A stretch of 63,350 nucleotides of DNA from an uncultured Dehalococcoidales bacterium (GTDB taxonomy: Bacteria; Chloroflexota; Dehalococcoidia; Dehalococcoidales; BS750m-G39): positions 55,452-118,801 of the forward strand of contig CAZDHX010000001.1 of assembly GCA_964505425.1 (NCBI GenBank), read 5' to 3'. Below, piece after piece: positions 16,417-37,194 of the stretch. How positions within the stretch are numbered: position 1 is the first letter of the stretch; each line of letters begins with the position of its first letter. The notes beneath the pieces are model-generated. The model was given only the letters and a program-made list of their open reading frames with translations, made no database searches and was not told the origin of the DNA. A program made the translations under genes and the position numbers.

Positions 16417-17334
16417 TCAGGACTTTAGATGCCTGATTGCCCTTTCTCTGCCAACTAGGAAAAACGGGGGGCTGTGCACTTTCGTTTTATGCGTTCCAAG
16501 GTCCAGGCTCTGTTTGTTATTGTAGAAGAGCGAGAGGCGAAGCTCGTAGTCGGCATACTTTAGCTCCCCGTATCCCGATAGCTGACCAATAATGATGATG
16601 AACCTGCCAGTTTGACCTGCCTCTATCGCCTGGGATAGGTTGACGCTCTTTTTGGCTCCCGGCTCGTGGGGATTGAGTAGTACGTTATATTCCCATGCCA
16701 TCGGGGGAGTGTGGTAGGTGGTGGAGTCGTAGGTGATGCGGACTGCCCTGACATCTATCTCCAGCCATTTCAGGGGGATAGCCTCGTTGCTGCTGTTTCT
16801 AAGCTTTACGTCCATGATGGGGAAGACGCCCTTCTTGCGAGGCGGTCCCTCGCTCTCAGGAAGCCACTCTTTTCTGAACTTTACAATAGCCGCCGGGTCA
16901 TCAATTAGGGCTACCTTAACCACCTCTAACGGTTCGTTTAGGGTAACCGGCTTTTCTCTGACGCGTTGGCTGGCGGCGGCGGCGGGTCGGTTACTCCAGT
17001 ACATCTGGGCTGGTTTCAGCGGCTCGGCCAGGGTGGGCCGGGCTAGCTTTTTTCGGGTACGCCGGCTGGCAACTATATCGAGCCAGTCGTCTCGGTAGAG
17101 CTTGACCTGGTTAGCGTCGAGCTTGCGGTAGAACCCTCCGTAGATCATGGTCTGCATGTGGCACTCAAGGCAGAGGACAGCCAGGTTGTCAATGTTGTTG
17201 TTGGCGGGGTTGCTGTCGATGTGGTGAATCTGGACGGGCTTTCCCTGCCGGCGGCAGACGCAGCAGGTGCGGTTGGAGAGGAATTGTATCTTGGCGGCGA
17301 CATCGGGGGGGATAATGGACGTTCTTCTCTTCAT
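16417..17334 (-). CDS. N-terminal HNH/zinc-finger endonuclease-signature protein with an unknown C-terminal domain
   Basis: CCVC...IHHID.NPANN.IDNL.VLCLECH. TATAAT promoter upstream. Convergent with acpP. Confidence 0.75.
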   Translation of the reverse strand: MKRRTSIIPPDVAAKIQFLSNRTCCVCRRQGKPVQIHHIDSNPANNNIDNLAVLCLECHMQTMIYGGFYRKLDANQVKLYRDDWLDIVASRRTRKKLARPTLAEPLKPAQMYWSNRPAAAASQRVREKPVTLNEPLEVVKVALIDDPAAIVKFRKEWLPESEGPPRKKGVFPIMDVKLRNSSNEAIPLKWLEIDVRAVRITYDSTTYHTPPMAWEYNVLLNPHEPGAKKSVNLSQAIEAGQTGRFIIIIGQLSGYGELKYADYELRLSLFYNNKQSLDLGTHKTKVHSPPFFLVGRERAIRHLKS

Positions 17335-17542
17335 GGTGCCACCGCCTATGTTAAGTTAATATGTTGAGTTAGTTGGATTTTCGGGAGACAAAGTCATTAT
17401 AGCTCTAAGCAGTTGCTAAAACAATAGTTTTTTGAGAACTTGGGGAAATTTTTTTGCCAAGTGGGGAAGAAATCTTTTACCTTATTGTTGACCTCCCCCC
17501 CCTCTTAGACTGCCTTAAACTTGAAACTGTTTGGGAGAAGGC

Positions 17543-17571
17543 TTGACAATTGATTGAAACAGATGTACTAT
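17543..17571 (+). promoter_or_regulatory. Strong sigma70 promoter of the AT-rich gene at 17596
   Basis: TTGACA (17543-17548), 17 nt, TACTAT (17566-17571), directly preceded by TG. Confidence 0.75.
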
Positions 17572-17595
17572 TAAGGAAGTGAAGGGTAGTCAAGC

Positions 17596-18396
17596 ATGTT
17601 AAAGGAATGCCACGGAAACCAAAGTCTAAATTATGTAGGAACAATTATTGACATTGAAACTATAGGTGACTTCTGCCGCGGCTACCCTAAAAATGACTCT
17701 AGGGAATATCAAGAGCACAAGTTGGTAATCTTCGGATATATCAACAGACAAGGATTTCATATTTATTGTGCTCAAGGAATTGAAGATATTCCAGAATTGG
17801 AAGAAAAGGCAAGTAAACTTCTAGAAACAATAGACAAAGAAAGACCTCTTTATGCTTTCCAATGTCACCATGAAATGAGCGTACTCCTTTATCGTCTAAA
17901 ATCAAAGACTCTTTTTGACAAGGAATTACAAGCTAGAGAGTATGAACCAAAGGAAGAGGCTCTTAGAAATCTAGGGATTCCCAACAGTTTTGGCGACCCT
18001 TTTCAAAATGAACGGAAGCCAGGTTATGCATGTCAAATAGCTTGGTTGAATAGTCGTTATGATGATGCTATTCAACATAATCGCGCTTGTCTCTTAAAAG
18101 AACAAGCGCTCTTGTTAAAAGGACGTGGAATAACGCCTATACCACTCGATTTCAAAGAAATGGATAGCTCATATATAAGTCCCGATTCATCGCAATCGTT
18201 CCAGCCATGGACAAGAGAACAAAAGAATTATGTTATTAAAGCGTGGAGTGAAGGGAAAACGATAAAATCAATATCACAAGACTGCAAAAGAAAGCCCAGA
18301 GCAATTTGGATGCGCTTACAAAGACTTGGTAAGATACCTTCTGACATTCCTTATACCGTCGAAAAGGAATCTTGGGCATTAAGAGATTTACCTTGA
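17596..18396 (+). CDS. Hypothetical protein: RNase H-like/DEDD exonuclease-like domain plus C-terminal HTH
   Basis: IIDIET (ExoI D-x-E); C-terminal PWTREQK..V..AWSEGKTI..I.....R.PRAI..RL.RLG. AT-rich relative to flanks. Confidence 0.55.
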   Translation: MLKECHGNQSLNYVGTIIDIETIGDFCRGYPKNDSREYQEHKLVIFGYINRQGFHIYCAQGIEDIPELEEKASKLLETIDKERPLYAFQCHHEMSVLLYRLKSKTLFDKELQAREYEPKEEALRNLGIPNSFGDPFQNERKPGYACQIAWLNSRYDDAIQHNRACLLKEQALLLKGRGITPIPLDFKEMDSSYISPDSSQSFQPWTREQKNYVIKAWSEGKTIKSISQDCKRKPRAIWMRLQRLGKIPSDIPYTVEKESWALRDLP

Positions 18397-18414
18397 AGGA
18401 TTATTATTAAGTAG

Positions 18415-21400
18415 TTATATCACCCCTTTTAATATACCCTCTAGCGTCTGTTCCCACCCCTTAACTCTCTCATAGCTCACCTTTATCTGGCTGGTGCCCA
18501 TCTTGACGCCATCGGGGAGGGGGAGCGCCCGCTGGTGGGGGGTGAATTTCATGCCGTTAAAGAGGCGGAGGATAATCTGCCCTTCCTCAGTGGATATAGA
18601 CTCAACGCCCGCCTTTGCCGCCAGAATCTTGACCTTGACGGCATAGAGCAGGTTTTTTACTTCCGCCGGCAGAGCGCCAAACCTATCGTTTAATTCTTCA
18701 GCTATAGCCTCTATCTGCTCAACTTTGTCCAGCTTGGCTAAGCTTTGATACAGGCTCAGTCTGGTGTCAAGGTCGGCGACATATTCCTCGGGGATAAAGG
18801 CTCTTAGGGGCAGGTCGATGGTCGGGGAGGGGAGGCGGCGTGGGGGTTCTTCTTTCCCGGCAATGCGGGCTTTCCTCTCCTCAACGGCGTCGGCGAGCAG
18901 TCGGCAGTAGAGGTTAAAGCCGACGGCGGTGATGAAGCCGCTCTGCCTCTGTCCCAGCAGAGTTCCCGCCCCCCTTATTTCCAGGTCTCTCATGGCGATG
19001 CCAAAGCCAGCTCCGAGCTCGGTGGCTTCAAAGATGGTCTTTAGCCTCTTCTCGGCGTTGGGCGTGAGGTACCTTCCCTTCTCGTAGAGAAAGTAGGCGT
19101 AGGCGTGGTTGGCGCCGCGCCCGACCCTGCCCCTTAGCTGATAGAGCTGGGTTAAGCCGAACCTGTCGGCTCGGTTGACAATGAGGGTGTTGACATTGGG
19201 CATATCAAGCCCCGACTCAATGATGGTGGTGCAGACCAGGAGGTCGCTTTTGCCGCGGGCGAAGTCAGCCATCACCACCTCCAGCTCGGCTTCGGGCATT
19301 TGACCGTGGGCGGTGGCGATTCTTGCCTCCGGTATAAGCTCGCGGAGCTTATCGGCGACATAGTTAATGCCCTGGACCCGATTATGGACGAAGAAGACCT
19401 GCCCGTTGCGCTCCAGCTCCCTTAGAATAGCCTCCCGGATTAGCCGCTCGTTATATTCAGCGACATAAGTCTTGATGGGGAGGCGCTGCTCGGGAGGGGT
19501 CTCCATGGTGCTCATGTCCCTCACCCCGACGAGGGACATGTGAAGGGTGCGGGGGATGGGGGTGGCGCTCAGGGTGAGGACATCAACCTCCTGCCTCAGT
19601 TTCTTAAGGTGCTCCTTGTGAGCGACGCCGAAGCGCTGCTCTTCATCAATAATGAGCAGCCCCATATTCTTGAAGACGACATCCTTTTGCAGCAGGCGGT
19701 GGGTACCGATGCAGATGTCAACGCTGCCCTCGGCTAGCCCCTTAACGATAGCCTCCTGCTCGCTGGGGGTCTTAAAGCGGCTCAGGACCTCAATTCTTAC
19801 CGGGAAGGCGTCCAGCCTCTGGCTGAAGGTGGCGAAGTGCTGCTGGGCGAGCACGGTGGTCGGCACCAGCACCGCTACCTGCTTGCCATCCGTCACTGCC
19901 TTAAAGGCGGCTCTGATGGCGACCTCGGTCTTGCCGTAGCCGACATCCCCGCACACCAGCCGGTCCATGGGCTTGGCTTTTTCCATATCCCCCTTCACTT
20001 CTTCCTGGACCTTTATCTGGTCCGGTGTCTCCACGTAGGGAAATGAAGCCTCAAGCTCCTGTTGCCACAGGCTGTCGGTGGAGAAGGCAAAACCGGGGAT
20101 AACCTCCCGGCTGGCATAGAGGGCAAGTAGTTCCTGGGCGACATCCTCAGCGGCTTCCTTCGCCCGCTGTTTGGTCTTGGTCCATTCTTGGGTGCCGAGG
20201 CGGTTCAGCAGCGGGGGGCGGTCGCTGGCGCCGATATAGCGGTTTATACGGTCTATCTGGTCGGTGGGGACATAGAGCTTATCGCCGGCGCCGTATTGCA
20301 GCCAGAGGTATTCCTTCTCGCTGTCCTCGGTGCTCATCCGGGTAACACCGGCAAATTTGCCAATCCCGTGCTCAACATGGACGACATAGTCGCCGGGGGC
20401 AAACTCAATAGCCAGTTTGTGGTGGGGTACAGCCCTTCTCTTGACCAGTCGGCGTTGCTTAATGAAGCCGAAGATTTCGGCATCGGTGAAAAGGGTGGTG
20501 TTATCCATCGCCCACCCCTCAGCCAGCAACCCCTGGACTAGTGCCAGCGAGCCGGGTGGGGGTATTTGCTTTATATCAGTGGTGAGGGAGGCAATAATAT
20601 CCTCCTGCTCAAGTAGCTCAGACAGTCGGCTGGCCTGGTGGCTGACGATGATGATTCTTTGTTTTTGCTTTAGTAGCTGTTTTACCTTGTTGACGAAAGC
20701 CGGTAGCTGCCCGCCGTAGCTGGGGGCGGTGCTAAAATTCAGGCGGTGGGCTTTTTCGCCAACACCCCAACTGGCGAGCATGAGGTGCGGCTTTTCTTTT
20801 ATCCCTGGCTCAAGCTCTTCCCAGGTGAAGTATGGTCTGGGAGTCTTCTCCGCCCGCAGCTCGCTGGCCTGGGCATCAAGCTCGTCTATTGCCTGCTTGA
20901 CAAGCCGGGGCTCATCAAGCACCAGCCGGCAGGGTGGATGTATGAAGCCGAAGATGCTGTCCTCTGGGGTGGTCAGCCGTTCGGTGGCGGGACCAATGGC
21001 AACGGACGATAGCTGACTCAGCGAGCGCTGGCTTGCCGGGTCAAAGCTCCGGATGCTTTCTATGGTGTTGCCGAGGAAATCAAGCCTGAACGGCAGGTCG
21101 CTGGTGGGGGGATAGATGTCAACAATGCCGCCGCGACGAGCCATCGTCCCCGGCATTTCCACCAGTTTTTCTAGCCTGTAGCCGATGGCTTGCCATTTTT
21201 CTATTAGCTCAAGCGGCTCAATAGTCGTCCCCGCTTTTAAGCTGTGGCCGGCGGCGGTGAAATCGCGGTAGGACGTTGTCTTCGGCATTATGGCGGGTGC
21301 CGAGGCAACAACGAGAGGGTTTTGGTCTCCATTTATATCGGCCAGCGCCGATAGCACCTGTACCCTTTCCTGCTCAGTAGAAGCGTCTGAGGCAATGCGC

Positions 21401-21863: not shown

Positions 21864-22520
21864 TTAACTGAATTCCATGCTTAGTAAAAACTGATTATTA
21901 CCAATGCGTTTTAGATTGTTGAACAAATCCTGCGAATTTAATGCCAGCCCGAAATTCTCTCTGGTTTCGGCTACCGTTGTCGTATAGAAGTCATCACGCA
22001 ACGAGGCGGTGGCATCATGCAGAAGTATCACATCCCAGCCCCTGTTAAAGGCATCCCGTAGCGAAGACTCGACGCATATAGAAGTGTCAATGCCGGTAAA
22101 TATAATTGTGTCAATACCCAGTGACCTTAGCCAGAGTTCGAACTCAGTATCCTGAAAGATCGAATCGCGTCTCTTCTGAACAACAAGGTCATCGCCTTGA
22201 GGCTGGAGGGCATCAATGAATTCGCTATCCCACGTTCCACGGACACACAAGGGCAGCTTCCTGATACGCTCACGCCGTTTGCTTGGCAGGATTTTATGTG
22301 ACCTATCAAGCATATCTATACCGGATTTCTCGCGTAACGCCTGTGAAAAGAACACTGGTATCTTTAACGACTTTGCTTTGTGGTAAACGTCTTGTATCAC
22401 AGGCACCACCTTCTGATACCTGGATATATCAAAGCCGAGTTTATCAAACGAGCCTCCGGTAGCCACAAACCCATTCTGAATATCTGTGATTGTCAGCGCT
22501 GGTCTGATTTTGTACGCCAT
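21864..22520 (-). CDS. Isochorismatase-family cysteine amidohydrolase, RutB-like
   Basis: D-K-C triad (TDIQNGF / VQKRR / cis-peptide loop TGIDTSICVESSLRDA). GGSFDKLGFDIS resembles the RutB GGYLDLAGFDVS segment. Confidence 0.85.
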   Translation of the reverse strand: MAYKIRPALTITDIQNGFVATGGSFDKLGFDISRYQKVVPVIQDVYHKAKSLKIPVFFSQALREKSGIDMLDRSHKILPSKRRERIRKLPLCVRGTWDSEFIDALQPQGDDLVVQKRRDSIFQDTEFELWLRSLGIDTIIFTGIDTSICVESSLRDAFNRGWDVILLHDATASLRDDFYTTTVAETRENFGLALNSQDLFNNLKRIGNNQFLLSMEFS

Positions 22521-22578
22521 GGCATTCTCCTCAGCATTGTAGCAGAAAGCACGTGGAAACCAAAGCGTGATTACTTCC

Positions 22579-24255
22579 TCAGATTCCAGCTTTTTGCAAG
22601 AATCGGCTTATGGTCGACCTCTCATCTTTATTCAGCAGCCCATTTTCATAGGCGACTGAGTCGAGGAAGAACTGAATATGAGGGGGGGCTTGCCATAATT
22701 CACGATTGGCATAGCGATACCCGTAGCGGGTAGAGCTGGCCAGCGTCTCTTTGCAGACTTCCTCACTATCGTAGTCAGCATTAGCCGTTAGCTCGGGAGT
22801 AAAACCATTCCTACGCGCTATAGCGTCAAGGGTATCATGAACTCCCGTGCTGTGCTGAGCCGCATTCTTGGCTCGGTAGGCGAATTCCTCCGACACTCCG
22901 ATTTTTACGGCTGCTTCTCGATGGGGATGCTTGCCCATGCTATCTTCGGCAGATTTTATCTTCAAATGTGGTGAGACGCTCATCGCCAGTCTAACCACCT
23001 CAGTATCGCAATAGGGAAACAATTGCTCTGAGCCATGTGCCAGCGCAATCTTGTTTTCTCTATCGAAGGTTTCTATATCACCCCTCTGTAAATCATCCCA
23101 CATTCTTCTTTGCAGACCCTCATAACCCTCGGCAGCGATGACCTTGGGGTACCAGGTATAACCGCCCCATAATTCGTCTGGGCCCTGACCGGATAAGACT
23201 GTGTGTATGTCATCCTGGCTGGCTAACTCCAGTGCGGCATAGATTCCGACGCCGGCTTCTATCTGCACCATGTCCCTCTCTTCAACGGCTTGAGCTACCT
23301 TAGGGATGTAAGATTCAATCTCGTCCGGGTTTATTGTCCGCACTTTGTGACTGAGACCGACTTCCCGGGTGAAGTGTTTCGCATATTCAATATCGTCGGC
23401 ACCATCTAGGCCGACTGTATATGCTGTCACCTTAGTGCCTCCCTCAGCCGCTACTTCAGCAACCAGTTTAGCCATCAGACAACTATCTACCCCTCCTGAA
23501 ATAAGTACCCCCACATTTTTAAGGTTATGCATCCTTTTTCTGACCGCACTACCCATCAAATCGCAGTATCCGTCAACGGCGGCAGTCATGTCATCTATTT
23601 CAACCTCAATTCCCATCTGTTGCAGGGAGCATACATCCTCAAACTTAATACCGTTCTTATCAAGTGAAGCGAGTATTCCTGCCCGTAATGGTTTTACATC
23701 GTGCAGACCTATATCCCAGAGCGCCTTTTTCAGCGGGGAAAAAGCCGTCAGCTTACCATTTTCAGCATAGAAAGCTGGCCTGAGACCAGCCGTGTCTCTT
23801 ATCATAATGGTTTGGGTGCCGTCGCTCGCTACCAGGAAGTAGGCCCCATCTAGAATCGGTAGTATCTGTTTCACGGCTAGACTCAGGTCGCCCTGATATT
23901 TTTCCTCTAAGAGGTGGGCAACTACCTCAGATGCGCTTCCCAGATGAATGTCATGCCTTGTTTCCAGGTTCGCTCTCAACTCCTGAATATTGTATAAATT
24001 ACCTTCGTATAGCACCACCAAACTACGGCTGCAATCAAAGGCTGGGTCTTCTGGGGACTCTTTTGCGGCAAATGATATCTTCCCCAGTGCCTGACCGTAT
24101 ATAGACTCATGGTCATTATGCCAGGCTTTTATTGCTCCATTGCTGATAATCCAAGACTTACCATGACCGTTGTAGCCCAGCTTATTCATCATGGAATGTA
24201 CTTGCTCGGTAACTTCGTCTCCATCTCGGTTAATAACACCGAATACAGGACTCAT
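22579..24255 (-). CDS. Asparagine synthase-like ATP-dependent amide ligase with a degenerate glutaminase domain
   Basis: Intact SGGVDS PP-loop and SGQGPDELWGGY. N-terminus MSPVFG lacks Cys1, and the HRGPD, NGEIYN and SDTEV equivalents are altered. Confidence 0.8.
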   Translation of the reverse strand: MSPVFGVINRDGDEVTEQVHSMMNKLGYNGHGKSWIISNGAIKAWHNDHESIYGQALGKISFAAKESPEDPAFDCSRSLVVLYEGNLYNIQELRANLETRHDIHLGSASEVVAHLLEEKYQGDLSLAVKQILPILDGAYFLVASDGTQTIMIRDTAGLRPAFYAENGKLTAFSPLKKALWDIGLHDVKPLRAGILASLDKNGIKFEDVCSLQQMGIEVEIDDMTAAVDGYCDLMGSAVRKRMHNLKNVGVLISGGVDSCLMAKLVAEVAAEGGTKVTAYTVGLDGADDIEYAKHFTREVGLSHKVRTINPDEIESYIPKVAQAVEERDMVQIEAGVGIYAALELASQDDIHTVLSGQGPDELWGGYTWYPKVIAAEGYEGLQRRMWDDLQRGDIETFDRENKIALAHGSEQLFPYCDTEVVRLAMSVSPHLKIKSAEDSMGKHPHREAAVKIGVSEEFAYRAKNAAQHSTGVHDTLDAIARRNGFTPELTANADYDSEEVCKETLASSTRYGYRYANRELWQAPPHIQFFLDSVAYENGLLNKDERSTISRFLQKAGI

Positions 24256-24591
24256 ACAAAATTCCTCCTACTATACAATTTCTGTGCTCAGGTTTGTGTA
24301 ATAACGACCTTTCTTAATCATTCTCTCCAATAATAAAAAGCATGCTATGATGCAGCTTGACGTTATTCGGGGATAGAAAATTACGAGGGGAGAATCTTTG
24401 GTTGTGGACTGAGGTGTTGAGAAGTTAATTACACCACGGGTTTTTAAACCATTATGCATACTATATTAGCATTTTATTTCTGTAGAGTCAACAGGGGTGG
24501 TTTATGGCGCGCTCCGGAATGTCCGGAGAGGGGGTTTCCCAAAATCTGTTACAATGCATATAATTTACGAAGAGGAGCGAGTGATACCCCA

Positions 24592-25242
24592 ATGCAGGAA
24601 AAGATAAGGCAAATTCTTGACCTCTTGAAGAGAGAATATGGTGTTCCTGAGCAGCAACATCGCCCTGACCCCGTTTCAGTCTTGGTCCGAACCATCCTTT
24701 CTCAAAATACCTCGGATACAAACTCCAGGGCTGCCTTTCAGTCATTACTGGCTTCCTTTGATAGTTGGGAGGACATTGGTACTGCCGACATTAGTACTAT
24801 TGCCAATTGCATTAGGTGTGGTGGGTTGGGAACGATAAAGGCACAGCGGCTCAAACAGGCGCTCGAGGAGATTATACGGGAGCGAGGGCGGCTTGAACTG
24901 GATTTCCTGACTCAGCTTACCCCGTCTGGTGCCGAGGACTGGCTTCAGAGACTACCCGGAGTGGGACCGAAAACGGCACGTTGCGTATTACTTTTTTCAC
25001 TGGGGACTCCGGTTCTGCCCGTGGATACACACATCCTGCGGGTGACCAAGCGATTAGGGCTAATCGGACCCAAAGCCTCACCACGTGAGGCGCATTATGC
25101 GCTGGGGGGAGCTGTCTCGCCGGAGGATATCTATCCGTTTCACATCCTTGTAATAGAACATGGGAGAACGACGTGTCGGGCGCGGTACCCTGACTGCCAG
25201 GCTTGCGTCCTGAGAAAGATGTGCCCGAGCTACGGCCTTTGA
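24592..25242 (+). CDS. nth: Endonuclease III family HhH-GPD glycosylase with a 4Fe-4S motif
   Basis: ILSQNTSD, LPGVGPKTA, PVDTHI.RV..RLG, C-x6-C-x2-C-x5-C. Confidence 0.85.
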   Translation: MQEKIRQILDLLKREYGVPEQQHRPDPVSVLVRTILSQNTSDTNSRAAFQSLLASFDSWEDIGTADISTIANCIRCGGLGTIKAQRLKQALEEIIRERGRLELDFLTQLTPSGAEDWLQRLPGVGPKTARCVLLFSLGTPVLPVDTHILRVTKRLGLIGPKASPREAHYALGGAVSPEDIYPFHILVIEHGRTTCRARYPDCQACVLRKMCPSYGL

Positions 25243-35022: not shown

Positions 35023-35145
35023 CTGACTCTCCTTATTGAGGTATGTCAGAGTATAGCACTGCTCGGTGATATTGGCAATCAAAGGGGCTTGACAGCCTTT
35101 GATGGAGCATACTATTCTATATATTATGAGTCCCGAGGGGGAGAA

Positions 35146-37194
35146 ATGCGTATAGAAAGCATAGGCACTACTGAGCACCTGGGCTCGGTGAAGATTTACG
35201 GCGTGCGCCGGGTCCTTGAGTTAGACTCGGGGGTGAAACCCCTTCAAGATGACATTCCGGAAGTCCAGAGAATCGAGAAGGAGGCTCTTGAAGATATTGA
35301 GCGGCGGATGGTGGTTGTGCTCCCCATCAAAAACGAAAACCTTAAGGTCTTTGAGGGTGTGCTCAGTGGCGTACCTCACGACTGCCTGATGATAGTAGTC
35401 TCCAATAGCCGGAGGGGGGAAGTGGATACCTTTGGCAATGAGCGGGATATCTTAGCTCGGTTTTGCCACGCTACCAAACGCCAGGCTTTGATTGTTCATC
35501 AAAAAGACCCTGCCCTGGCTGAGGCTCTCAGACAAGCCGATTATGGTGAGGTCCTGGCTGAGGATGGGTTGGTGAGGAATGGGAAGAGCGAGGGGATGAT
35601 GATAGGGATTTTATTGACTATGCTGCATGGCAAGGATTACGTGGGGTTTATTGATACCGATAATTACATACCAGGTGCCGTCTGGGAGTATGTGAAGCAC
35701 TACGCCATCAGCTTTAGCCTAGCCCAATCCCCCTATGTTATGGCCAGGATTTTATGGCATTATAAGCCTAAGATTGCCGGGGAGATATTTTTTAAGAAGT
35801 GGGGGAGGGTCTCGGAAATAAGCAATAAATACATAAATCACCTCTTATCGACAAAGAAAAGATTTGAAACCGAGATTATAAAGACAGCCAATGCCGGAGA
35901 GCACGCCATGAGCATAGAGCTGGCCAAGATGCTCACCTACGGCTCCGGCTATGCTGTTGAAGTGCAGGAACTGATGTCCATCTTTGAGCAGTTTGCCGAG
36001 ATACTGCCTATAAGCGACAAGACGGCGGCGGAGAAGGGGGTAGAGCTAATTCAAACCGAGACGATAAACCCCCACCTTCATGAGGAAAGGGGTGGCGAGC
36101 ATCTGGTGCAGGACATGTTATTGCCCAGCCTTTCCGTCATCTACCATAGTCCCCTTTGCGAATTATCCACCAAGCACCTCATCTTTAACCAGTTGCTGGA
36201 GCAGGAGTGTTTGAAGCCAACGGATGAGGTCCCCAAGATGAGGCTTATCCCCCCGCCTCAAAAAGCAGATATGCAGAAGTTCGCCCGGGCAATTGAGGCG
36301 CAGCTCCCCGGGTATTCAGTGCCCAAGGGACGAGTATTACGCGAGAGGTTAATCAATGCTGAATTTGGTCGGTCAGAGGCGGCGGTGCGAAAGGTGGTGT
36401 TTACCGATTTGGACGGCAGTCTGCTTCACCCCCTCACCTATTCCTATACCCAGGCGCTGGATGCCTTAAGACTGCTGCAGGAAAAGGGGATACCAATCGT
36501 ATTCTGCTCGGCAAAGACAAGGGCTGAGCAGGAGGTTTATAGAAGGGAGCTGGGGGTAAAAGACCCATTTATAGTTGAAAATGGGGGGGCTATCTTTATT
36601 CCACGGGATTATTTCCGTCTCAATTTTGCCTATGACAAGGCGACCACGGATTATCTTGTGATTGAGCTGGGCACTCCCTACCCGGAAGTGAGACGAAAAC
36701 TAAAGAAGGCTGTTGAGGGGGAGACTGGCTGCCGTGTTATCGGTTTTGGCGATATGAGTGTAGAGGAGGTGGCTCGCCAGACCGGTCTAAGTTTGACTCT
36801 TGCCGAGTTTGCTAAGCAAAGGGAGTACAGCGAGACGGTCAAGATTGAAGGTAATAAGAAGGATATAGACCGCGTGGTAAAGAAGATTGAGCAGGCAGGG
36901 CTTAACTGTGTCTTCGGGGGAAGGTTTTACGGGGTGACGGAAGGGAGCGATAAGGGTAAGGCAGTCAAGGTCCTGTCCGAGCTTTTCAAGCTAAATATGG
37001 GCAAGATAAAGACCATCGGTATCGGGGATACTGATAGTGATTTGCCGATGCTGGCGGTGATGGACCTGCCAATATTGGTGCAGGAGCAGCGCAATCGGTG
37101 GCGAAAGCTGAAGCTGCGGAATGTACGTAAGGTTAAAGGGGTGGGACCGGAGGGGTGGAGTGCAGCGGTTAGAGGGCTGGTGGTCGTCGACTAG
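35146..37194 (+). CDS. mgsD: Bifunctional mannosyl-3-phosphoglycerate synthase/phosphatase
   Basis: N-terminal MPGS (VLPIKNE, FIDTDNYIPGAV.EY, YKPK, WGRVSE, NAGEHA) fused to a HAD-IIB phosphatase (FTDLDGSLL, ENGG, IGD..SD). ATG 35146 follows GAGGGGGAG. Confidence 0.9.
   Translation: MRIESIGTTEHLGSVKIYGVRRVLELDSGVKPLQDDIPEVQRIEKEALEDIERRMVVVLPIKNENLKVFEGVLSGVPHDCLMIVVSNSRRGEVDTFGNERDILARFCHATKRQALIVHQKDPALAEALRQADYGEVLAEDGLVRNGKSEGMMIGILLTMLHGKDYVGFIDTDNYIPGAVWEYVKHYAISFSLAQSPYVMARILWHYKPKIAGEIFFKKWGRVSEISNKYINHLLSTKKRFETEIIKTANAGEHAMSIELAKMLTYGSGYAVEVQELMSIFEQFAEILPISDKTAAEKGVELIQTETINPHLHEERGGEHLVQDMLLPSLSVIYHSPLCELSTKHLIFNQLLEQECLKPTDEVPKMRLIPPPQKADMQKFARAIEAQLPGYSVPKGRVLRERLINAEFGRSEAAVRKVVFTDLDGSLLHPLTYSYTQALDALRLLQEKGIPIVFCSAKTRAEQEVYRRELGVKDPFIVENGGAIFIPRDYFRLNFAYDKATTDYLVIELGTPYPEVRRKLKKAVEGETGCRVIGFGDMSVEEVARQTGLSLTLAEFAKQREYSETVKIEGNKKDIDRVVKKIEQAGLNCVFGGRFYGVTEGSDKGKAVKVLSELFKLNMGKIKTIGIGDTDSDLPMLAVMDLPILVQEQRNRWRKLKLRNVRKVKGVGPEGWSAAVRGLVVVD

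Follow-up and report, generated by a model that had tools for sequence, protein, structure and literature searches.

A candidate mannosylglycerate amide synthetase and its isochorismatase-type neighbour in an uncultured Dehalococcoidales bacterium

A 63,350-nucleotide stretch of the genome of an uncultured Dehalococcoidales bacterium (GenBank assembly GCA_964505425.1, contig CAZDHX010000001.1, positions 55,452 to 118,801 of the forward strand) encodes an AsnB-like protein, ASNL, beside a hydrolase of the isochorismatase superfamily, ISO. The whole stretch is called the window and its genome G000. The ASNL family is linked by gene order and by co-occurrence to the synthesis of mannosylglycerate. 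ASNL is a candidate for the enzyme that converts mannosylglycerate to mannosylglyceramide, and ISO may reverse this step; the combined assignment is given an even chance of being correct. Of the two assignments, that of ASNL to mannosylglycerate amidation is the more secure. An earlier interpretation of the DNA from its letters alone (the sequence-only reading) had proposed either that the hydrolase replaces a lost glutaminase as nitrogen donor, or that the two enzymes form and cleave one particular amide, for example an osmolyte. The second proposal is the better supported of the two. It fits the mannosylglycerate gene context, including a cluster that contains ISO itself (locus L018), with substrate, product and direction of the ISO reaction deduced from that context.

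Synthetase domain

ASNL contains the Pfam domains GATase_7 and Asn_synthase (155 bits). An AlphaFold2 model (pLDDT 83.5, pTM 0.83) has the two-domain fold of AsnB. The best Foldseek matches of the model were AsnB and human asparagine synthetase (ASNS), with TM scores of 0.73-0.84, followed by TsnB9, β-lactam synthetase and carbapenam synthetase. Family residue counts refer to 169 compared sequences, mostly from Dehalococcoidia. The PP-loop SGGVDS (ASNL residues 253-258) and Lys442, the equivalent of AsnB Lys449, are invariant in 169/169. The same holds for the SGxGxDE..GGY segment and the equivalent of Arg387, as placed by comparison of the family profile with E. coli AsnB (1ct9) and human ASNS. 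The segment SGQGPDELWGGY is also present in ASNL.

The sequence-only reading had described the ATP pyrophosphatase domain as intact. This holds for the residues that bind ATP and pyrophosphate, but those for aspartate are replaced by Gln, Glu and Gln. AsnB Thr322, Thr323, Arg325 and Glu348 align to ASNL Val330, Gln331, Glu333 and Gln357. Mutagenesis of the E. coli enzyme places these four AsnB residues at the site for aspartate and the acyl-adenylate; Thr323, Arg325 and Glu348 are needed for β-aspartyl-AMP formation. Across the family, Thr323 is replaced by glutamine in 169/169, Arg325 by glutamate in 167/169 and Glu348 by glutamine in 169/169.

The C-terminal SSTRYGY...W...H.Q segment is a family-specific, nearly invariant module. 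It had been regarded as an extension, which the lengths contradict: with 558 amino acids, ASNL is as long as E. coli AsnB. In the NCBIfam AsnB model, ASNL residues 59-522 align to positions 50-507 of 554. Gln331, Glu333 and Gln357 together with the R-Y-G-Y...W module form a signature that is complete in ASNL and near-invariant in the 169 sequences. It is also present in the distant members P0130, P0127, P0126 and P0161, the last of which reads RYGS.

Link to mannosylglycerate synthesis

A protein search retrieved more than 500 relatives of ASNL from Dehalococcoidia and other Chloroflexota, nearly all of them unnamed or called asparagine synthase. A scan of species genomes yielded 55 loci, nearly all in metagenome-assembled genomes (MAGs) of Dehalococcoidia and one in Latescibacterota. 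Gene neighbours of these loci were assigned by tblastn and neighbour clustering. L-numbers denote homologue loci in species genomes or on metagenome contigs, and WIN the ASNL of the window where it is compared with homologues. P-numbers denote distant members from a profile search of 1.84 billion protein representatives.

In the first two neighbourhoods opened, the ASNL homologue directly followed a PF09488 gene for mannosyl-3-phosphoglycerate synthase (mpgS); in one it also preceded a HAD phosphatase gene and lay near a GH38 gene. This context recurs. Adjacent to the ASNL homologue in the 55 loci are mpgS (29 loci), an mpgP-type HAD gene (21), a GDP-mannose pyrophosphorylase-type gene (GMPP, recognised as NTP_transferase plus LbH; 17) and GH38 (11). 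The typical gene order is mpgS, GMPP, ASNL, mpgP. Anywhere in the genome, mpgS is present in 45 of the 49 ASNL carriers. The class-wide sample of 301 evenly drawn genomes gave the corresponding contrast: mpgS is encoded by 13 of the 14 carriers of the family, G000 included, versus 17 of the 287 non-carriers (Fisher p = 8e-14, uncorrected for phylogeny).

The link extends beyond close relatives. Distant members with the Q-E-Q and RYGY signature share 28-37% identity, and all four that could be placed (P0130, P0161, P0127, P0126) abut mpgS or mpgP. In the phylogenetic tree, L007 is the sister of WIN (100/100 support), and the two branch within the operon members. The window also carries an mpgS/mpgP fusion, which joins the synthase to the corresponding phosphatase. 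It forms an intact open frame of 734 amino acids located 11 kb from ASNL and has, in tblastn comparison with L003, 52% identity to MpgS and 51% identity to the HAD phosphatase. The GMPP homologue of G000 is on another contig.

Other genes were observed next to family members. In eight mannosylglycerate clusters, L011:12541-14402 and L031:4717-5457 among them, mpgP or GH38 is followed by a gene of the glutamine-dependent NadE type (CN_hydrolase plus NAD_synthase). The synteny is perhaps coincidental, or the gene may have an additional amide-related role. The Latescibacterota locus (L050:4162-5802) has a sodium:solute symporter between mpgS and mpgP, an osmolyte-type context. One subclade (L032-L041, L043, L047, L049, L051, L055 and L056; e.g., L047:125-1273) starts with M[TSA]WIGGIF and always has an FAD oxidoreductase of the DAO type directly upstream. 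No mpgS was found near these subclade loci.

Proposed pathway and its weak points

ASNL would act not on aspartate but on the carboxylate group of mannosylglycerate or, alternatively, of the phosphorylated compound that precedes it. The mpgS/mpgP fusion of the window is the presumed source of this substrate. ASNL would adenylate the glycerate carboxyl at the PP-loop site, with conversion of ATP to acyl-AMP and pyrophosphate. Displacement of AMP by a nitrogen nucleophile would yield the neutral mannosylglyceramide. This product is proposed because the only carboxylates of the pathway are 3-phosphoglycerate, mannosyl-3-phosphoglycerate and mannosylglycerate, and AsnB chemistry transforms a carboxylate into an amide. 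In the ancestral form, glutamine hydrolysed in the N-terminal domain would supply the nitrogen, a form still seen in distant members from mannosylglycerate operons. In the Dehalococcoidia clade the glutamine pocket is remodelled; in ASNL the nucleophile is gone too, and free ammonia is the likely donor. ISO may hydrolyse the carboxamide of mannosylglyceramide to the acid and ammonia. Alternatively, it may hydrolyse glyceramide once GH38 has taken off the mannose. The pair could thus shift the pool between an anionic and a neutral solute, or recycle the amide.

Mannosylglyceramide is a neutral solute accumulated by Rhodothermus marinus under salt stress (PMC1224877). In that species it has been recognised since 1999 as the form of mannosylglycerate linked to salt stress. 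In the literature searched, no gene was found assigned to its formation or breakdown. The ASNL family supplies a specific candidate for the synthase and the window a candidate for the partner amidase, while the family members run in a natural series from intact to lost glutaminase sites. ASNL would be a new substrate variant within a known enzyme superfamily, and its amidase partner appears to be unreported.

A more specific proposal is that ASNL and ISO form a dedicated amidation/deamidation switch for a compatible solute, with ASNL using ATP and ammonia and ISO converting the amide back. This is advanced as a tentative idea that is rather doubtful in its full form. If it were true, sediment Dehalococcoidia could match the overall charge of their solutes, and the accompanying potassium ions, to salinity. 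Mannosylglyceramide would gain its first known genes for synthesis and for breakdown, and the solute, so far reported only from Rhodothermus, would be widespread in subsurface Chloroflexota. The case would also record the drift of a glutamine amidotransferase towards dependence on ammonia in sediments rich in ammonium. Upon confirmation, a second solute derived from mannosylglycerate could be predicted from genomes of abundant uncultured Dehalococcoidia of marine sediments, and mannosylglycerate-producing hosts could be given an extra gene for production of the neutral amide.

Several points weigh against the synthesis and hydrolysis of mannosylglyceramide by this pair. To our knowledge, mannosylglyceramide has never been reported from Dehalococcoidia. 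A co-transcribed synthetase and reversing amidase would run an ATP-wasting cycle unless regulated after translation. Amidases of the isochorismatase type usually have small pockets, and a mannosylated amide may not fit. The nearest characterised relative of ISO is a ureido-amide hydrolase. More distant ISO homologues (~50% identity) occur in unrelated clusters of MttB, corrinoid and pterin methyltransferase genes, often with a canonical AsnB; they may have a different function. The ASNL gene of the window is separated from mpgS/mpgP by the 11 kb mentioned above, and its sister L007 also lacks the adjacency. A subclade of 15 loci adjoins the DAO-type flavoprotein instead of mpgS, with mpgS mostly elsewhere in those genomes, and its function may have shifted. 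The N-terminal domain is still conserved and 55% of the members keep Cys1, which may indicate another function of this domain.

N-terminal domain

Residue 2, after the initial methionine, corresponds to Cys1 of canonical AsnB. The sequence-only reading had noticed four deviations from a glutaminase, and each of them was verified: ASNL starts with MSPVFG in place of the canonical MCGI and has EGNLYN for NGEIYN, GSASEV for SDxEV and YNGHG for HRGPD. EGNLYN and GSASEV were placed by HMMER alignment to structures of PurF, GlmS and AsnB, and YNGHG by a MAFFT alignment with a canonical AsnB from a related genome. AsnB Arg49, Asn74, Glu76 and Asp98 align to ASNL Ser61, Glu84, Asn86 and Ala108, the placement of Arg49 being uncertain by about two residues. 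In the family, Arg49 is replaced by Ser in 156/169, Asn74 by Glu or Asp in 165/169, Glu76 by Asn in 118/169 and Asp98 by Ala or Thr in 146/169. The joint alteration of the hallmarks is thus true of ASNL but not peculiar to it: it is common to the 169 sequences, including those that keep Cys1.

Residue 2 itself is variable (C 93, S 54, T 8, A 5, G 3; Y also occurs). In the tree it alternates between Cys and Ser among very close relatives, which looks like relaxed selection. Most family members start with M-C-P-I-C-G, in which Cys2 and the cysteine at position 5 resemble a CxxC motif. The position-5 cysteine is kept in 121/169, even where residue 2 is serine. WIN (start MSPVF at 24241-24255) and its sister L007 have lost both cysteines of this common C-P-I-C start. 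The distant operon members P0130, P0161 and P0146 have Cys1, the arginine, Asn-Gly-Glu and the aspartate all intact; therefore, the ancestor was a genuine glutamine amidotransferase. Free ammonia is the likely donor for present-day ASNL, given its sequence, because AsnB without Cys1 still uses ammonia, as do the C1A and C1S mutants of the E. coli enzyme. Selection on the glutaminase may have relaxed in ammonium-rich sediment. The N-domain is the least conserved part of ASNL, with a mean identity to the family of 46% compared to 63% for the C-domain. A residual structural or regulatory role of the N-domain is likely.

A different role of the N-domain is assumed by another explanation. ASNL would still belong to the mannosylglycerate pathway but would couple mannosylglycerate (glycerate and glucosylglycerate being other options) to an N-domain-bound amine or amino acid. 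This is considered unlikely, and so is the accompanying role for ISO, which would trim or recycle the conjugate or act on glyceramide only. The changes at Arg49, Asn74 and Asp98 amount to a conserved remodelling of the pocket rather than mere decay, many N-domain residues are invariant, and most members have the C-P-I-C motif. The Cys-less N-domains of β-lactam and carbapenam synthetase, which are similar in fold, have roles other than glutamine hydrolysis. However, the canonical glutaminase site of P0130 and P0161 points to ammonia transfer as the ancestral function. The Cys/Ser exchanges at residue 2 resemble relaxed selection, not a new catalytic role, and no gene that could supply an amine is conserved in the clusters.

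Amidohydrolase

ISO matches the Pfam family Isochorismatase with 134 bits, and among solved structures E. coli RutB comes closest (87 bits). Asp13, Lys116 and Cys149 align to the catalytic triad of RutB (8bkd), also when RutB structures with substitutions at these positions are used. The description of ISO as a RutB-like cysteine hydrolase with an Asp-Lys-Cys triad thus proved correct. Isochorismatase-type cysteine hydrolases cleave small amides such as nicotinamide, maleamate, biuret and ureidoacrylate. ISO remains far below the equivalog cut-offs for RutB (TIGR03614, 113.2 vs 377.95 bits) and BiuH (79 vs 370 bits). A search of G000 for RutA gave no match at E <= 0.001. The low score and the lack of RutA rejected ISO as a true RutB.

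Orthologues of ISO with 60-89% identity are located next to ASNL in the species genomes L007, L048, L053 and L018, in the last at a distance of 3 kb, and on the metagenome contigs L066, L070, L071, L074, L076 and L080. The window pair shares 63% (ASNL) and 72% (ISO) identity with L007, and 86% and 89% with L066. The ASNLs linked to ISO, on at least ten contigs, range from 37 to 86% identity to WIN. A strict co-evolution of ISO with ASNL was considered and not adopted: identities of ISO are flat at 59-74% and correlate only moderately with those of ASNL (Spearman 0.48, the pairs being non-independent). Three arrangements occur: ASNL then ISO, ISO then ASNL, and divergent. The link is taken to be selected because the pairing recurs across deep ASNL divergence, in three arrangements and with otherwise unrelated flanks. 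No other conserved partner of the pair was found, with flanks that differ at every locus. The linkage in other genomes, which the sequence-only reading had made decisive, exists and is recurrent, but it is a minority arrangement: an ISO orthologue is present anywhere in only 5 of the 49 carrier genomes. In the class-wide sample, ISO and ASNL occur together only in G000.

The gene order in L018 is ISO, glycerate kinase, GMPP, ASNL and mpgS/mpgP, with GH38 on the opposite strand, and places ISO with recycling genes. G000 differs: homologues of GH38 and glycerate kinase were not seen in it, which favours a direct hydrolysis of mannosylglyceramide here.

The other role for ISO that had been suggested is replacement of the lost glutaminase. 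ISO would cleave a ureide or carbamoyl amide and pass the ammonia to the Cys-less ASNL. The likeness to RutB with an intact triad, the co-directional genes with a 58-nt gap lacking a terminator, and the recurrence of the pairing over deep divergence fit this function. In addition, four of the five ISO-adjacent ASNLs in species-genome loci lack Cys1 (WIN, L007, L048 and L053). The co-occurrence of Cys1-less homologues with the hydrolase had been recommended as a check, and there is no association: with G000 added, ISO is present in 1 of 14 genomes with Cys and in 5 of 36 without (Fisher p = 0.66), leaving 31 of the 36 Cys-less ASNL genomes without any ISO orthologue. In L018, Cys1 is kept and ISO is present. 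L080 has an ASNL-type gene with a canonical glutaminase N-terminus and ISO 3 nt downstream. This is a weak point, and L080 was not accepted as proof of ISO beside an intact glutaminase, since the gene directly upstream of ISO (L080:1036-2638) has a deletion of about 100 nt and a frameshift and is possibly a pseudogene or a misassembly. Order and orientation of the pair vary, and fusions were not seen among the pairs. A ureide-cleaving nitrogen donor also agrees poorly with the rarity of ISO among the carriers, with its low score in the RutB model and with the lack of RutA in G000. Moreover, AsnB-type synthetases without Cys1 accept free ammonia, which makes a donor enzyme unneeded. Nitrogen donation by ISO is therefore very improbable. 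Being optional and having no tie to the loss of Cys, ISO is unlike an obligatory nitrogen donor and fits an accessory enzyme acting on the ASNL product.

Some ISO homologues were observed elsewhere. In L062:1164-8689, L063, L064, L065 and L087, a homologue is encoded with two MttB-family methyltransferases, a corrinoid protein and a pterin-binding methyltransferase. Three genomes of this cluster have a canonical Cys1 AsnB. The arrangement looks like a quaternary-amine demethylation cluster with its own amidase. In L077:1985-3370, an ISO orthologue follows a GT20 (OtsA-like) solute glycosyltransferase, an osmolyte-type context.

Gene locus

The two open reading frames had been reported on the same strand with a gap of 58 nt, and the coordinates agree (Table 1). 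The start codon of ASNL is preceded at 7 nt by the Shine-Dalgarno sequence AGGAGG. The arrangement TTGAC(T/G)...TGnTA..AT of the promoter-like site recurs in alignments of the regions ahead of ASNL in L007 and L048. A terminator scan of the minus strand detected none between ASNL and ISO, and co-transcription of the pair is probable. The possibility of a riboswitch in the ASNL leader of 200 nt was considered and discarded: Rfam gave no match at E <= 1, and beyond the promoter the leader is not conserved.

Table 1. Features of the ASNL-ISO locus and the mpgS/mpgP fusion, in window coordinates
Feature	Coordinates	Strand	Description
ASNL	22579..24255	-	558-aa AsnB-family two-domain ATP-dependent amide synthetase; candidate mannosylglycerate amide synthetase (mannosylglyceramide synthase)
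ISO	21864..22520	-	218-aa isochorismatase-superfamily cysteine amidohydrolase; candidate amidase for the ASNL product (mannosylglyceramide or glyceramide)
ASNL-ISO spacer	22521..22578	-	58 nt; GAGGAG before the ATG of ISO; without terminator-like hairpin
Promoter-like site TTGACT-17-TAATAT, extended -10 TG	24463..24491	-	About 200 nt upstream of ASNL
mpgS/mpgP fusion (MgsD-like)	35089..37194	+	PF09488, 480 bits at 35170-36291; start codon uncertain

The block had been called AT-richer than its surroundings. Its GC content of 47.2% is lower than the G000 mean of 52.8% (standard deviation 3.2), but only mildly so, at the 7th percentile of 2.7-kb windows. A horizontal transfer was not deduced from this, as the 7th percentile is uninformative. 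In the window, ISO is flanked by ASNL and mfd. Elsewhere in the window, an AT-rich islet at 17000-18500 (38% GC) contains a 266-aa gene without a Pfam or NCBIfam match, beside a solo HNH protein.

An HhH-GPD glycosylase gene (Nth/DR2438-like; 24454-25242, plus strand) lies divergently upstream of ASNL. In L011 and L050, the same gene borders the mannosylglycerate cluster, and in L001 it is located about 6 kb upstream of ASNL. The window locus might be an operon remnant from which mpgS and GMPP have moved away, a history suggested by the presence of the same HhH-GPD gene at the borders of mannosylglycerate clusters in relatives.

Detachment from the operon could also mean that ASNL is a decaying, non-functional relic, with ISO its neighbour by descent only. 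WIN and L007 lack both the operon linkage and the two N-terminal cysteines, and the low conservation of the N-domain would fit decay. Yet the frame of 558 codons is intact and is preceded by a strong Shine-Dalgarno sequence and its own promoter-like site, every invariant of the synthetase domain is kept, and the same pair is retained in L007 and L066. A relic is hardly probable.

Comparison with known enzymes

ASNL shares with AsnB (E. coli, 1ct9; human ASNS, 6gq3) the two-domain fold, the PP-loop SGGxDS, the SG(x)GxDE..GGY segment and the equivalents of Arg387 and Lys449. The chemistry is presumably shared as well: the carboxylate is adenylated and then attacked by ammonia. The differences are an identity of only about 20%, the absence of Cys1, a Q/E/Q substrate site and a C-terminal RYGY..W module of its own. 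The genomic partner of the ASNL family is the mannosylglycerate pathway, not amino-acid metabolism. ASNL scores below the cut-offs of both curated AsnB models (TIGR01536, 189.3 vs 267.1 bits; NF006949, 183.2 vs 499 bits). G000 encodes GatB (564 bits), and a search of this genome gave no asparaginyl-tRNA synthetase above the cut-off (best score 132 vs 343 bits). Asparaginyl-tRNA is consequently made by transamidation, and a synthetase for free asparagine is not required.

That ASNL is a plain ammonia-dependent asparagine synthetase with an unrelated hydrolase as neighbour, an outcome already envisaged in the sequence-only reading, can be dismissed almost entirely: it is the sole AsnB-family gene in a genome of 92% completeness, has the fold and PP-loop of AsnB and belongs to relatives labelled asparagine synthase in databases, but the aspartate-site residues are replaced family-wide, the AsnB model scores are far too low, asparagine is made on tRNA, and the family is confined to 14 of 301 class genomes, 13 of them with mpgS. 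The label 'asparagine synthase (glutamine-hydrolysing)' is almost certainly wrong for the compared Dehalococcoidia clade.

A functional parallel is AsnO of the PA3459 type in the pathway of the osmolyte N-acetylglutaminylglutamine amide (NAGGN). There, an AsnB-superfamily enzyme whose gene lies in the cluster of a compatible solute performs the amidation of that solute. ASNL is distinct from AsnO (TIGR03104, 110.3 vs a cut-off of 570.1 bits), and no Ngg-type GNAT/ligase gene adjoins it. The substrate of AsnO is a dipeptide, whereas a sugar acid is proposed for ASNL, and the glutaminase site is lost in ASNL.

Like ASNL, β-lactam synthetase (1jgt) and carbapenam synthetase (1q15) have no N-terminal nucleophile and keep an ATP-dependent, acyl-adenylating C-domain. 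They form an intramolecular amide, the β-lactam, from a substrate that bears the amine itself, and they are found in antibiotic clusters. Clavam or carbapenem genes were not present among the window neighbours of ASNL. The carbapenam synthetase CarA is also more distant from ASNL than AsnB is (E = 2e-5 vs 1.6e-19).

RutB (8bkd), BiuH, CSHase, PncA and NicF belong to the same isochorismatase fold family as ISO and have the same Asp-Lys-Cys triad. In contrast to RutB and BiuH, the conserved neighbour of ISO is an AsnB-like synthetase and not a gene of pyrimidine or s-triazine catabolism.

The described MpgS/MpgP pathway stops at mannosylglycerate and comprises neither an amidating nor a deamidating enzyme. 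It includes the fused MgsD of Dehalococcoides mccartyi, and the window encodes an MgsD-like fusion. Production of mannosylglycerate by the MgsD fusion was shown in a yeast host (Empadinhas 2004, as cited in PMC6240254).

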